IMG/VR virus record: IMGVR_UViG_3300042375_000684 | DNA from: a virus | Length of the DNA stretch: 64,000 nt | Direction: 5' to 3' (one strand) | Part shown: positions 9,458-15,001 of the stretch, one piece after another | Layout of the letters: every line of letters begins with the position of its first letter | Numbering within the stretch: position 1 is the first letter of the stretch | The notes under the pieces: generated by a model | What the model saw: only the letters and a program-made list of their open reading frames with translations | Told to the model about the DNA's origin: nothing | Databases searched by the model: none | Made by a program: the position numbers and the translations under genes

Positions 9458-12400
9458 ATGACAAAATTTTTATCAGATAGAGTAAAGAAAACTCCACCAT
9501 CAAAAGTATCTGCAGAAAGATACCAGTTTTTAAAACTTTCAGAAGCTGAACCAGATCTTGGGGTGCCAGCTGCAAATAACTATGTACTCACATCTGATAC
9601 AGATGGAAATAGATTGTGGACTGACTCTGTTATTTTACAAGGTTTTACTGGATCCAAAGGTGATATAGGATTTACTGGCTCAAAAGGTGATATAGGATTT
9701 ACTGGATCTTTGGGTTTCACAGGCTCACTTGGCTTTACTGGTTCCAAGGGTGATATAGGATTTACAGGATCCAAAGGTGATGTAGGTTTCACTGGTTCAT
9801 TAGGTTTCACTGGATCCAAGGGTGATATCGGATTTACTGGTTCTAGTGGTTTCACTGGTTCTATTGGATTTACTGGTTCCAAGGGTGACATAGGATTTAC
9901 TGGATCAAAAGGTGATATAGGTTTCACTGGTTCTATCGGTTTCACTGGATCCAAAGGTGACATAGGTTTCACTGGATCCAAGGGTGATATCGGATTTACT
10001 GGTTCTAGTGGTTTCACTGGTTCTATTGGATTTACTGGTTCCAAGGGTGACATAGGATTTACTGGATCAAAAGGTGACATTGGATTTACTGGTTCAATTG
10101 GTTTCACTGGATCATTAGGTTTTACTGGATCTAAAGGTGACATAGGATTTACTGGTTCTATTGGATTTACTGGATCTATTGGATTTACTGGTTCCAAGGG
10201 TGACATAGGATTTACTGGATCAAAAGGTGATATAGGTTTCACTGGTTCATTAGGTTTTACAGGCTCCAAAGGTGACATAGGTTTCACTGGATCCAAAGGT
10301 GACATTGGATTTACTGGTTCGATTGGTTTCACTGGTTCCAAGGGTGATATAGGATTTACAGGATCAAAGGGTGACATTGGATTTACGGGATCTAAAGGTG
10401 ACATTGGATTTACTGGTTCAATTGGTTTCACTGGATCATTAGGTTTTACTGGATCTAAAGGTGACATAGGATTTACTGGTTCTATTGGATTTACTGGATC
10501 TAAAGGTGACATAGGATTTACTGGTTCTATTGGATTTACTGGATCATTAGGTTTCACTGGGTCCAAAGGTGATACAGGATTTACTGGATCATTAGGTTTT
10601 ACTGGGTCCAAAGGTGACATAGGATTTACTGGTTCGACTGGTTTTACTGGATCTAAAGGTGACATAGGTTTTACTGGCTCAAAAGGTGACATAGGTTTCA
10701 CTGGATCATTAGGTTTTACTGGATCTAAAGGTGACATAGGTTTCACTGGTTCTATCGGATTTACTGGTTCATTAGGTTTCACTGGTTCTATCGGTTTCAC
10801 TGGATCCAAAGGTGATACTGGTTTCACTGGATCTATCGGTTTCACAGGTTCACAAGGTTTCACAGGTTCAAAGGGTGATATAGGTTTTACTGGATCTATA
10901 GGTTTTACTGGATCTAAAGGTGATATAGGATTTACTGGTTCCAAGGGTGACATAGGATTTACTGGATCAAAAGGTGATATAGGTTTCACTGGTTCTATCG
11001 GTTTCACTGGATCCAAAGGTGATACTGGTTTCACTGGATCTATCGGTTTCACAGGTTCACAAGGTTTCACAGGTTCTCAAGGTTCGCCTGATACTGCATC
11101 CGATATTTTAACAAAACTTAAAACTGTAGATGGTTCGGGATCAGGCCTTGATGCAGATTTATTAGATGGTTTAGATTCCACTCAGTTTTTAAGATCCGAC
11201 GCAAATACCGCAATGACTGTTGGATGGTTAACACTGGCAAATGACCCTCAAAGTAATTTTCATGCAGCAACAAAGGAATATGTAGATACTATTGCAGCTG
11301 CATCACTTCATTATCATGCTCCTGTAAGAGTAGAATCTGCTATTAATCTAGATGCCATTTATGATAATGGTACAGATGGTGTTGGAGCTACATTAACAAA
11401 TGTTGGAACTCAAATTGAGTTAATTATTGATAGTGTAACATTAGTTTTAGATAATCGTGTTCTTGTATATCAACAAGCAAATACTGCACATAATGGTATA
11501 TATTACGTAACAGATACTGGTTCTGCAAATACTAATTGGGAATTAACTAGAAGTGCTGATGCAGATGCATACTCACCTAGTGACCCTGCAGCTCTCGGTC
11601 GTGGAGACGCATTCTTTGTAAGAGAAGGTTCTACCGGAGCTGGTGAACTTTATGTGATGACTACTGTAGGTGCTATTACCTTCGGTTCAACACCTATTAT
11701 ATTCGCACAGATATCAGATAGTCAGATTTATTCAGCTGGCGCTGGCCTAGTATTAAATGGTACACAATTTTCCATTAACCCGGCCGCAAATATAGTAACA
11801 AGTGGATTAACTATAAATGGTGTCGGCGGAGTAATTAATTCAAGTGGTCAATGGATTGGTTCTCCTACTAACTTACAAGGATATACTGGTTCTATAGGTT
11901 TCACTGGATCTAAAGGTGATATAGGTTTCACTGGTTCTAAAGGTGATATAGGTTTCACTGGGTCATTAGGTTTCTCTGGATCTGTCGGTTACACTGGTTC
12001 TATAGGTTTCTCTGGATCTAAGGGTGATATAGGTTTCACTGGATCAGAAGGTTTTACAGGATCTAAAGGTGATATAGGCTTCACTGGATCATTAGGTTTT
12101 ACTGGTTCAAATGGTTTCACTGGATCTAAAGGTGACATTGGTTTCACTGGTTCGGGTGGAACTGATGGTGTGATAGGTTATAATGGTTCTGTTGGATTTA
12201 CAGGATCCAAAGGTGACACTGGATTTACGGGATCTAAAGGTGATATAGGTTTTACAGGCTCTCTTGGTTTCACTGGATCAAAAGGTGACATAGGTTTTAC
12301 TGGCTCAAAAGGTGATATAGGTTTTACTGGATCAATTGGATTTACTGGCTCAAAGGGTGATATAGGTTTCACTGGTTCATTGGGTTTCACTGGATCAAAA

Positions 12401-15001
12401 GGTGACATAGGATTTACTGGTTCAAAAGGTGATATAGGTTTTACTGGTTCAGAAGGTGGAACTGGATTTACTGGTTCGATTGGTTTCACTGGATCCAAAG
12501 GTGACATAGGTTTCACTGGATCCAAAGGTGACATAGGATTTACAGGATCCAAAGGTGACATAGGTTTCACTGGATCGGGAGGCGGCACTGGATTCACTGG
12601 ATCTAAAGGTGACATAGGTTTTACTGGATCTAAAGGTGACATAGGTTTCACTGGTTCTCTTGGTTTTACGGGGTCCAAAGGTGATATAGGTTTCACTGGC
12701 TCAAAAGGTGATAATGGATTTACTGGTTCTATAGGTTTCACTGGCTCAAAAGGTGATATAGGATTTACAGGATCCAAAGGTGACATAGGTTTTACGGGGT
12801 CCAAAGGTGATATAGGTTTCACTGGCTCAAAAGGTGATAATGGATTTACTGGTTCTATAGGTTTCACTGGCTCAAAAGGTGATATAGGATTTACTGGTTC
12901 TATAGGTTTCACTGGCTCAAAAGGTGATATAGGATTTACAGGATCCAAAGGTGACATAGGTTTTACTGGTTCAGAAGGTGGAACTGGATTTACTGGTTCT
13001 AAAGGTGATAATGGATTTACTGGTTCCATAGGTTTCACTGGCTCCGGCGGAACTGGATTCACTGGATCCGAAGGTGGTATTGGTTATACTGGTTCTCTAG
13101 GTTTCACTGGTTCAAACGGTTATACTGGTTCTCTAGGTTTCACTGGTTCAAACGGATTTACTGGCTCCGGCGGAACTGGATTCACTGGATCAGAAGGTGG
13201 TATTGGTTATACTGGTTCTCTAGGTTTCACTGGTTCAAACGGATTTACTGGCTCCGGCGGAACTGGATTCACTGGATCAGAAGGTGGTATTGGTTATACT
13301 GGTTCTCTAGGTTTCACTGGATCAGAAGGTGGAACTGGATTTACTGGTTCTCTAGGTTTTACTGGTTCAAACGGATTTACTGGTTCTCAAGGTGCTGGAT
13401 TTACTGGTTCTCAAGGTGTAACTGGTTTCACCGGTTCTGCAGGATCTGGTGGCGGCGGTGGGCTTACATGGATACGAAAAACTGCTAATTACACGGCGGC
13501 AACAAATGAAGCCATTATAGCAGATTCTTCTGGTGGATCTTTTACTATAACACTTCCGGCTACACCGGCATCTGGAGATAATATAGTAATAGCTGATGGC
13601 GCCGATTGGTCTGTAAATACATTAACAGTAGATAGAAATGGATCCACAATCGAAGGATTAACTTCAGATTTAATTCTAGATGTTACGGATGTTAAAGTAG
13701 ATTTAGTTTATGATGGATTTACCTGGCAAGTATATTCAAGTGTAGGTAAAAAAGGTGAAACTGGTAACGGCCTTACATGGATTAAAGTAACAAGTACATA
13801 TACTGCTGTATCATTTGATGCTATTATAGCTGATACTAGTGGTGGTTCATTCACAATTGATCTTCCAATTACACCATCAATTGGTAATTTTATTACTATA
13901 GCAGACGGAGCCGATTGGTCCGCAAATAATTTGACTGTGGGAAGAAATGGTTCGACAATTGAAGGTTTATCTACAGATTTTATTTTAGATATAAATGATG
14001 TTCGTGTGGAATTTGTCTATGATGGGTCTACATGGCAGGTCTTTACTAATATAGGTAGAACAGGTGATACTGGATTTACTGGTTCGATTGGATTTACTGG
14101 TTCTATAGGTTCTACCGGATTTACTGGATCTATAGGTTCTACCGGATTTACTGGATCTATAGGTTCTACCGGATTTACTGGATCTACTGGATTTACTGGT
14201 TCACGAGGTGATACTGGATTTACTGGATCTTTAGGTTTTACTGGTTCGGGCGGAACTGGTTTCACCGGTTCGATTGGTTTTACTGGTTCACGAGGTGATA
14301 CTGGATTTACTGGTTCGGGCGGAACTGGTTTCACCGGTTCGATTGGTTTTACTGGTTCTATTGGATTTACTGGTTCAGGTGGAACTGGTTTCACTGGATC
14401 TATAGGTTCTACCGGATTTACTGGTTCTACTGGATTTACTGGTTCACGGGGTGATACTGGATTTACTGGTTCACGAGGTGATACTGGATTTACTGGATCT
14501 TTAGGATTTACTGGATCTTTAGGTTTTACTGGATCTCAGGGTTCTGGTTTCACTGGATCTCTCGGATTTACGGGAAGTGTAGGTAGTAACTCTATTACTA
14601 TAACAGATGATACAGCAACAAATGCAACAAGATATCCAATATTTACAGATGCTACTTCTGGAAGCGCATCAGGTGCTAATGTATCTTCTACTAAACTATA
14701 TTATAACCCATCAACTGGAACTTTAAATGCTACTGAATTTAACTCTCTATCAGATATGGCATATAAAGATATAGTATCACAAATAAAAAATCCAATAGAT
14801 ACTTTAAATAAAATTTACGGATATGAATTTATTTGGAAAGAAACACAAAAAACTTCATATGGTGTAATAGCGCAAGAGATAGAAAAAGTACTTCCAAGTA
14901 TTGTAAATGATGGCGAATATAAAACGGTAAACTATAATGCTATTATTCCTTTCCTAATTGAGGCAATTAAAGAATTAAATAGAAAGTTAAATGAAAAATG
15001 A
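9458..15001 (+). CDS. Collagen-like long tail fibre with C-terminal peptidase S74 intramolecular chaperone
   Basis: Three long Gly-X-Y tracts (GFT/GSK/GDI) and a duplicated ADxSGGSFTI..RNGSTIEG domain. The C-terminus SD..YKD...I.NPI...[30 protein letters not shown] is S74-like. Confidence 0.85.
9641..14585 (+). repeat. Collagen-triplet repeat tracts (approx. 9641-11088, 11878-13446, 14060-14585)
   Basis: 9/18/27-bp periodic ggNttNactggNtcN units. They include exact duplications such as 9801-9915 = 9963-10077. Confidence 0.95.

Follow-up and report, generated by a model that had tools for sequence, protein, structure and literature searches.

A giant proline-free collagen-like tail fibre of an uncultured T4-like phage and its pairing with a four-domain glycosyltransferase

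The IMG/VR record IMGVR_UViG_3300042375_000684 is a 64,000-nucleotide stretch of viral DNA, here called the window, from an uncultured freshwater (lake-water) T4-like myovirus. Its fibre module contains a giant collagen-like tail fibre gene (9458-15001, plus strand), in which the unit G-[Phe/Tyr]-Thr-Gly-Ser (G[FY]TGS) is repeated 151 times. Downstream, at 19161..22532 on the same strand, lies the gene for a 1123-residue glycosyltransferase (GT) of four domains (GT4 + GT2 + GT2 + GT21-like, assigned by Pfam), hereafter the multi-GT. When phage loci are compared, G[FY]TGS collagens and a glycosyltransferase are found to be linked strongly and non-randomly. Because this repeat type travels with the multi-GT across phages, the phage probably sugar-coats its fibre, with glycosylation of the G[FY]TGS units by the multi-GT as the probable route. 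An original prediction, made from the letters of the window, had assigned to the fibre all of the roughly 17 kb of late-expressed glycan genes around it. The evidence presented below ties one of these enzymes to the collagen, and it sets the remainder apart.

Association of the multi-GT with one collagen dialect

Two sets of IMG/VR loci were compared, one of 78 loci retrieved with the GFT repeat and a control of 79 loci retrieved with collagen carrying Gln at the Y position, the type found in the nearest relatives. Open reading frames (ORFs) of the loci were called anew and compared by phmmer, and all ORFs of the GFT set were scanned with the glycan enzymes of the window. A multi-GT homologue is present in 43 of the 78 GFT loci vs 2 of the 79 Gln-at-Y loci (Fisher 1.2e-14). 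When the sets are limited to loci with T4-like markers, the counts are 29/39 and 0/9 (p 5.5e-5). No other glycan enzyme of the window recurs across GFT-collagen loci. The GT4, first GT2, and GT21-like domains of the multi-GT match 42, 39, and 36 of them, respectively; of the 75 loci with non-collagen fibres, one is matched by the GT21-like domain and none by the GT4 or first GT2 domain. The co-occurrence across phage genomes that had been proposed as a check is thus found for the multi-GT, often accompanied by an FkbM methyltransferase, and fails for the 17 kb as a whole. An operational pair class can be defined, in which one fibre module contains both a GT4+GT2(+GT21) homologue and a collagen ORF whose triplets are G[FYW]T in at least 10% of cases. 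The window belongs to this class, as do L378 and no fewer than 43 IMG/VR loci.

The association extends to gene neighbourhood. A strict two-sided flank filter kept only 16 loci, and a test of upstream sequence was used instead, restricted to distinct collagen ORFs that are preceded by 4 kb or more of sequence. The multi-GT lies within 4 kb upstream of the collagen start in 22 of the 54 ORFs with at least 10% G[FYW]T vs 2 of the 72 others (p 5e-8), and 34 of those 54 are in GT-positive loci vs 2 of the remaining 72. In 33 loci, the GT and a giant G[FY]T collagen gene are divergent, with less than 300 bp between them. A late-promoter box faces the collagen gene in 14 and the GT in 10 of the 22 distinct intergenic regions of this kind. 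Tandem and more distant arrangements occur too, as in the window, and the pair is seen in at least four different arrangements.

The feature of the fibre that the enzyme follows can be narrowed down. Among non-aromatic GxT-rich collagens, the multi-GT is found in 1 of 9; therefore, the correlate is the aromatic-Thr unit and not Thr at Y as such. The distal parts of the fibres do not account for the link. In a set of 29 complete and distinct collagen proteins encoded next to the GT, the C-terminal regions form 17 clusters. No domain other than collagen occurs in more than 15 of the 29, and 23 share no non-collagen similarity with the window fibre. This diversity of tips and the lack of a common domain indicate that the link is to the repeat and not to the tip, which argues against a connection through receptor specificity, such as receptor masking.

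Natural swaps separate the multi-GT from the other glycan genes. These genes flank the fibre module on both sides, with 6.2 kb on the heptose-operon side (386-6626) and 11.1 kb on the side of the multi-GT and cluster B (19161-30232), 17.3 kb in total and close to the extent predicted. Loci sampled by gp13 were intended as an unbiased comparison, but cluster B occupies their whole 10-kb flank; the sampling did bring out the two closest relatives, which were extended. Both relatives (92% and 85% gp13 identity) carry giant collagens in the same slot, just upstream, of at least 1399 and at least 2184 residues, that are of GIQ/GTQ/GVQ type with 4-10% Thr at Y, and both contigs keep cluster B without a multi-GT. 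Similarly, locus L321 is syntenic with the window through the heptose operon, w6704, w7360 (70%), w8988 (72%), and a giant collagen gene. However, its collagen is GTQ/GLQ/GTT, and no multi-GT follows it. Since such relatives keep the heptose operon or cluster B without the multi-GT, only the multi-GT is tied to the GFT dialect. Heptose-operon and cluster B genes persist also where the fibre in the same slot is not a collagen, and a specific tie of either cluster to GFT collagen is not supported by these sequences. The idea that all 17 kb of glycan genes serve the fibre is accordingly not supported.

Two further observations concern these relatives. The core of cluster B, which consists of a 355-aa protein (23248-24315), a TPR-FkbM protein (26686-27939), and a nucleotidyltransferase-cupin protein (29456-30232), stands just upstream of gp13 and is kept in L215, L228, and L266, which have gp13 identities of 61-67% and non-collagen fibres. 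A conserved protein of about 970 residues follows the Gln-type collagens of the closest relatives (L297:6571-9483, L298:4597-7515, L321:14774-17680) and is absent from the window. It has only a faint endosialidase beta-barrel match and may be a tip or spike partner of the Gln-type fibre.

Architecture of the fibre and the multi-GT

The fibre gene is open from 9458 to 15001 and encodes 1847 residues. Its reality and its architecture are well supported and can be stated with near certainty. Runs of at least four Gly-X-Y triplets, counted by script, give 392 triplets (64% of the protein) in three blocks at residues 62-544, 808-1337, and 1533-1711, with 161 triplets in the longest uninterrupted run. 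Block 1 is unbroken, and blocks 2 and 3 contain eight two-residue interruptions. The commonest triplets are GFT (137), GSK (59), GDI (51), GSI (32), and GSL (24), and G[FY]T accounts for 143 of the 392. As the original prediction had it, the collagen is essentially free of Pro (1 residue inside the triplets, the other 20 of 21 in globular parts), and Thr occupies Y in every second or third triplet (166/392, 42%). The protein also contains 59 KGD and 5 RGD motifs. Within the 64 kb, G[FY]TGS motifs are confined to the giant fibre gene and two smaller genes downstream of it (14998-15402 and 16070-16741). The Pfam Collagen family (PF01391) matches the fibre in 11 stretches with an E of 5e-145. At the DNA level, the repeats are degenerate, with 62-82% matches and a mixture of synonymous codons; thus, they result neither from a recent expansion nor from an assembly artefact, both of which are ruled out. 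The pattern indicates that the repeats are old and are maintained at the protein level.

All domains of the fibre are encoded on the plus strand. The N-terminal 61-aa anchor domain (9458..9640) shares 62-67% identity with the N-terminal ends of further long fibres (P0082, P0084, P0062, P0012, and P0087), and fibres that share it include both collagen-bearing and collagen-free proteins. Collagen block 1 (9641..11089; the 161 uninterrupted triplets) is followed by a conserved globular node of 263 residues (aa 545-807; 11090..11878). The node has homologues in fibre loci of IMG/VR (66 loci, the majority without collagen), and the closest homologues (P0082, P0084, and P0062, 66-74% identical) carry no collagen. 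AlphaFold2 (AF2) predicts its core with a predicted local distance difference test score (pLDDT) of about 90, and 16 of its positions are invariant. No convincing fold match to the node was found in the PDB, where the best Foldseek E is 0.098 and VIA-align gives Z below 5. Collagen block 2 (11879..13468) has 174 triplets and four two-residue breaks in its distal part.

Two tandem domains of about 95 residues come next (aa 1338-1532; 13469..14053). They are of the gp10/XD docking type, with an AF2 pLDDT of 96. Foldseek matches them to the N-terminal region of CBA120 TSP4 (E 2e-6 to 1e-4, template modelling (TM) score 0.79-0.83), with a root-mean-square deviation of 1.2-1.6 Å over 85-96 columns in the superposition; T4 gp10 and gp9 also match. 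An XD/gp10 fold in the middle of a rod suggests that the rod may carry side branches, and on these models the giant fibre may be a branched hub to which other fibres would dock. Collagen block 3 (14054..14590) comprises 57 triplets (GFT/GST/GSI/GSG/GSR-GDT) with four two-residue breaks. A distal tip segment (14591..14749) precedes the S74 intramolecular chaperone, which ends with the stop codon (14750..15001). The predicted chaperone is confirmed by Pfam Peptidase_S74 (PF13884), which covers aa 1765-1816 of 1847 at 33.1 bits vs a cut-off of 22. The domain contains an S-D-x-x-x-K motif, SDMAYK, with Ser1765 and Lys1770. A Ser-Lys dyad in this motif at the cleavage site is a feature of endosialidase chaperones. 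Residues 1726-1846 match the distal subunit of the long tail fibre of Salmonella phage S16 (6f45_A, E 2e-6).

Searches with the whole protein are dominated by animal collagen VII, and a weak sequence match to the BclA chain 1wck_A (E 1.5e-5) is also found. Homologue searches indicate that Pro-free G[FY]T-GS[QKR] collagens of more than 1000 residues are common in metagenomes. The PDB entry 8zxl ('spindle/axial fibril') was considered as a structural relative and dropped, as its sequence is a generic GAPGSQ model; a paper on it was looked for and not found.

The product is best modelled as a homotrimeric modular tail fibre in which an anchor, three Pro-free collagen rods parted by the node and the docking domains, a tip, and the S74 chaperone would follow one another. 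With the standard rise of 0.286 nm per residue, the 392 triplets would by themselves give about 336 nm of collagen rod, and the fibre would be roughly 0.35 micrometre long. By analogy with the S74 family, the chaperone would trimerise the chains and nucleate zipping of the presumed triple helix from the C- to the N-terminus, and would then cleave itself off at Ser1765. In accord with known collagen chemistry, the helix could be held by inter-chain ion pairs at the 59 KGD and 5 RGD motifs and by beta-branched Thr and Ile at Y.

The multi-GT lies 4.2 kb downstream of the fibre gene, between the fibre genes and gp13. A T4-type late box, TATAAATA (19119..19126, +), stands 35 nt before its start codon. 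An FkbM methyltransferase (22529..23233, +; Pfam) is translationally coupled to it; FkbM adjoins the multi-GT in L081 and L187 too, and FkbM homologues occur in 11 collagen loci. The multi-GT has no hydrophobic segment and is soluble by hydropathy. None of the 50,697 deposited phage records contains it, and among 185,579 species genomes it is found at full length once, on a 201-kb phage-like contig, head-to-head with a GYT/GFT collagen. By this distribution, the multi-GT is a phage-only enzyme. The GT-A domain of GalT1 (5hea, E 8e-6) is its sole match in a PDB sequence search; we take GalT1 to be part of the streptococcal serine-rich-repeat adhesin glycosylation pathway and regard the match as a lead only. 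A relationship of the window enzymes to TibC was considered and dropped. TIGR04414/BAHT has no NCBIfam match at E <= 0.01 in the multi-GT or in ORF 928-2262, and the latter has no PDB sequence match at E <= 1.

Two outlying homologues deserve mention. At L171:10001-12625 and L172:10001-12625, a 62%-identical multi-GT homologue stands alone, in another phage context, with small minus-strand genes around it. In L353 (6472-11944), a 754-aa partial multi-GT match lies directly upstream of a non-aromatic Thr/Gln collagen with 35% Thr at Y, a pairing that suggests that the enzyme family may serve other Thr-rich dialects.

Probable glycosylation of the repeat and alternative explanations

In the proposed mechanism, the multi-GT would act in the cytoplasm late in infection, the adjoining FkbM enzyme would cap the product by methylation, and the outcome would be a glycan-sheathed fibre, for which the original prediction suggested roles such as adhesion or shielding. 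The most likely O-glycosylation sites are the 151 G-[FY]-T-G-S units of each chain, with Thr as the presumed acceptor. A broader proposal is offered tentatively, as a possibility that the evidence does not yet favour. It holds that aquatic T4-like phages possess an undescribed protein O-glycosylation system of their own, in which a GT of three to four domains with an FkbM enzyme reads G-[Phe/Tyr]-Thr-Gly-Ser as an 'aromatic sequon' and coats fibres hundreds of nm long. Each collagen dialect (G[FY]TGS, G-S/T-S, G-x-Q) would have its own enzymes or none, such that the repeat would function as a decoration code. If that entire proposal were correct, and with the same reservation, the system would put hundreds of glycans on each fibre trimer.

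Several results weigh against glycosylation of the repeat. The link is incomplete in both directions. No multi-GT is present in 35 of the 78 GFT loci; truncation affects many of these, but L104/L107, L151, L141, and L145 have ample flanks, and the 52 ORFs around 12 GT-less GFT loci include no Pfam GT among the 25 families listed. Conversely, the L171 (23.7 kb) and L172 (54.7 kb) contigs carry a multi-GT and no collagen, and in L336/L167 the multi-GT lies beside a Gln-type collagen. The probability of Thr following an aromatic X is only weakly higher in collagens with the GT than in those without (0.86 vs 0.61, n = 9, p 0.03). On the gp13 tree, each trait changes at least five times, and the two are found together at four or more separate points. 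However, this amounts to only 3-5 independent contrasts, none of them opposite, and the sign test is not significant. With so few contrasts, shared ancestry of the fibre module is possible.

The chemistry of the fibre also speaks against a need for sugar. Ion pairs at KGD motifs are a sugar-free route to collagen stability, as established in collagen host-guest studies. Such pairs could stabilise the fibre helix without glycan, and, given the RGD motifs, the Ile and Thr at Y, and the GFT collagens that have no GT in view, the original suggestion that glycan is needed to explain the helix is not sustained. Collagen fibres of prophages fold unglycosylated, although these are Pro-rich and contain no aromatic residues (PMC3368898). 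Thr is the predominant Y residue in bacterial collagens (PMC8968730), which removes the special meaning that had been attached to Thr at Y by itself. Finally, the published role for GTs in a gene island of this kind is modification of the host O-chain (PMC7029224).

The alternative that best survives takes up many of these points. According to this explanation, the fibre is an ordinary unglycosylated one held by KGD pairs and beta-branched residues, the GTs remodel the O-chain or capsule of the host, for example, to block superinfection, and the GT and GFT collagen are co-inherited in a mobile fibre cassette. Host modification is how the cluster GTs have been read so far, the 59 KGD motifs offer a sugar-free helix, collagens and GTs each occur without the other, the phylogenetic contrasts are too few for significance, and the GT2 domains of the multi-GT have weak NCBIfam similarities to polysaccharide GTs. 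Against it, the glycan genes of the window include no initiating phosphoglycosyl transferase, flippase, polymerase, transporter, or lipid-carrier enzyme, and none of their products (386-6626, 19161-30232) has a convincing membrane segment. Furthermore, the GT tracks the repeat type and not the diverse tips, relatives that swapped to a Gln-type collagen lost the GT and kept other glycan genes, the pair persists through at least four gene arrangements, and no full-length bacterial homologue of the multi-GT is found. Host remodelling is considered unlikely, although it deserves to be taken seriously.

A less probable alternative, which we doubt, is that the multi-GT glycosylates the virion on an acceptor other than the repeat Thr, such as the Ser of G-S-x, the small GFTGS-stalk proteins, the Gly-rich adhesin, or other proteins of the fibre module. 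Ser follows the aromatic triplet almost invariantly (P ~1.0), and conservation thus does not distinguish Thr from Ser. Two GFTGS-stalk proteins and the Gly-rich adhesin are encoded between the fibre and the GT, and the w6704 family, too, is often a neighbour of the GT (28 loci). However, w6704, Gly-rich proteins, and fibre nodes are common in GT-less loci, and the G[FY]TGS repeat is the sole feature common to all GT-linked fibre proteins. It is very improbable that the multi-GT modifies phage DNA, as phage GTs often do (reviewed in PMC12619734), or that it produces a polysaccharide, free or secreted, with no relation to the fibre, as the gene has a late promoter, is placed in a structural and not a replication module, and tightly adjoins collagen genes. 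Glycosylation of the G[FY]TGS units by the multi-GT is thus retained as the probable reading.

Genomic setting, related systems, and implications

Homologues of T4 gp13/14, gp15, gp16, gp17, gp18, gp19, and gp20 are encoded downstream of the fibre and glycan region. The portal protein shares 54% identity with its counterpart in Sinorhizobium phage phiM12 and about 50% with cyanomyophage portals. A 24-kb megablast query matched no deposited phage, and none is close at the DNA level; L207, a 4.5-kb IMG/VR fragment from sample 3300044984, is 100% identical to the window. In pelagi- and cyanomyophages, a 'host recognition cluster' mixes fibre genes with glycosyltransferases, which are read as modifiers of the host O-chain (PMC7029224). 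The region described here corresponds to this cluster. In the close relatives L187 (18200-20433) and L176 (10851-15266), the large terminase gene is split by inserted sequence into at least two ORFs, possibly by an intron, an intein, or a homing-endonuclease insertion.

The heptose-operon side (386-6626) encodes a methyltransferase, a sulfotransferase, a GT2, HldC-, HldA-, and HldD-like enzymes, and a cupin. The opposite side (19161-30232) encodes, in addition to the multi-GT and FkbM, a GT17, a GT4, a Methyltransf_24 protein, a TPR-FkbM protein, two GT2 proteins, and a nucleotidyltransferase-cupin protein. As predicted, the region has the marks of late expression, with T4-type late-promoter boxes (TATAAATA) at 347, 7288, 19119, and 23229. 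The TTG start of the gene at 27878-28717 was probably called too far upstream, because the L208/L214 homologues align only from aa 18; the hydrophobic N-terminus is an overlap with the previous gene.

The box at 7288..7295 (+), like the other plus-strand copies, is intergenic; it lies ahead of the fibre operon, whose genes start at 7360, 8988, and 9458. The first gene (7360..8985, +) encodes a 541-aa fibre or baseplate-anchor protein with a PHROG tail fibre/baseplate wedge N-terminus; it has a 70% identical, syntenic homologue in L321 and another homologue in L347. The second (8988..9452, +) encodes a 154-aa partner that has no family match and stands just upstream of the giant collagen gene in every syntenic relative (72% identical in L321 and 47% in L347, with the giant collagen gene next in both). 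Downstream of the giant fibre, a 134-aa protein (14998..15402, +) has a short GFTGS collagen stalk of three motifs, a globular C-terminus, and a 57% homologue in L156. Its 223-aa paralogue (16070..16741, +; Pfam Collagen 7e-8, PHROG tail fibre) has a GFTGS/GYTGS stalk of six motifs. The two share their C-terminal globular domain and could be side fibres or further GT substrates. A Gly-rich protein (17641..18720, +; Gly_rich_2, Pfam PF21722, phrog_4474) is a candidate gp38-like adhesin, and a Tfa-type tail fibre assembly chaperone (18723..19103, +; Pfam Phage_tail_APC, PHROG tail fibre assembly) completes the module.

Among cellular systems, the nearest parallel is BclA of Bacillus anthracis and B. 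cereus, which, like the fibre, is a collagen-like filament of the prokaryote world with Thr at Y. In contrast to the fibre, BclA has GPT repeats with Pro at X, ends in a C1q-like domain, and is about 20-fold shorter. X in the phage fibre is Phe/Tyr, Ser, or Asp, the C-terminus is S74/gp37-like, and glycosylation is proposed from the gene pairing. The enzymes of the two systems are unrelated as far as tested. The TibC/Aah (BAHT) system differs both in its enzyme family, which is other than the GT4 + GT2 + GT21-like multi-GT, and in its repeat (G-S/T-S vs G[FY]TGS).

Virus-encoded multi-domain GT assembly lines are known from chlorovirus PBCV-1 (A064R) and from Mimivirus, with methyltransferase capping in A064R. 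These systems resemble the proposed one in building a defined glycan on a virion surface protein. However, they belong to eukaryotic viruses, and their acceptors are capsid Asn or hydroxylysine. Glycosylation of Mimivirus collagen is cited in PMC8968730. The repeat region of BclA is described as O-glycosylated and as carrying methylated sugars (PMC8968730; Daubenspeck 2004, as cited in PMC3368898), and a precedent for Thr-glycosylated collagen is likewise cited there (PMC3368898, refs 40 and 41).

Among phages, virion glycosylation in mycobacteriophages (Freeman et al. 2023, Cell Host Microbe; PMC10527164), as cited in PMC12619734 and PMC12801897, offers a comparison. In these citing accounts, phage GT genes lie beside late structural genes, as in the window, and their products attach sugars, in the cytoplasm, to virion proteins of the phage itself. 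That system is proven experimentally, whereas the present one is a proposal from gene comparison. Capsid and tail-tube subunits are reported to be modified there on their C-terminal tails, while the candidate here is a collagen repeat, and the host group and GT architecture also differ. The EPclA-type fibres of E. coli O157 prophages share with the window fibre a collagen domain in a phage tail fibre and C-terminal trimerisation modules; they are trimeric, and their helix is stable without hydroxyproline (PMC3368898). However, EPcl collagens are Pro-rich at X, have no Phe/Tyr, extend over a few hundred residues, and have been shown to carry no glycan (PMC3368898). No paper on a glycosylated collagen-like phage fibre, or on a pair of G[FY]TGS collagen and multi-GT, was found in the literature.

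The fibre itself combines known modules in a different setting. Endosialidase, T5 pb1, and S16 gp37 fibres likewise end in an S74 domain with S-D-x-x-x-K. The known S74 chaperones fold beta-helical or beta-structured shafts, whereas the chaperone of the window would serve about 1,200 collagen residues. Similarly, the XD domains of CBA120 TSP4 and T4 gp10, which have the same fold as the docking domains (TM ~0.8), are known at baseplate-proximal hubs, and here the fold stands mid-rod.

Tail fibres decide the reach of a phage among cells, and virion glycosylation has so far been experimentally shown in few phages. Even if sugar-free, the fibre would be useful as a natural assembly of about 1,200 Pro-free collagen residues, KGD pairs, internal gp10-type nodes, and an S74 chaperone. 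If glycosylation is confirmed, the pair would provide a short repeatable sequon and a soluble multi-domain enzyme for the glyco-engineering of recombinant bacterial collagens, as well as a natural test of how sugar and aromatic side chains affect the stability and solubility of a Pro-free triple helix. At least some GTs of the 'host recognition cluster' would then be directed at the virion, contrary to their current host-directed reading, and T4-like phages that are abundant in fresh and marine waters, a large and uncultured group, would decorate very long collagen fibres with a glycan that they encode themselves.

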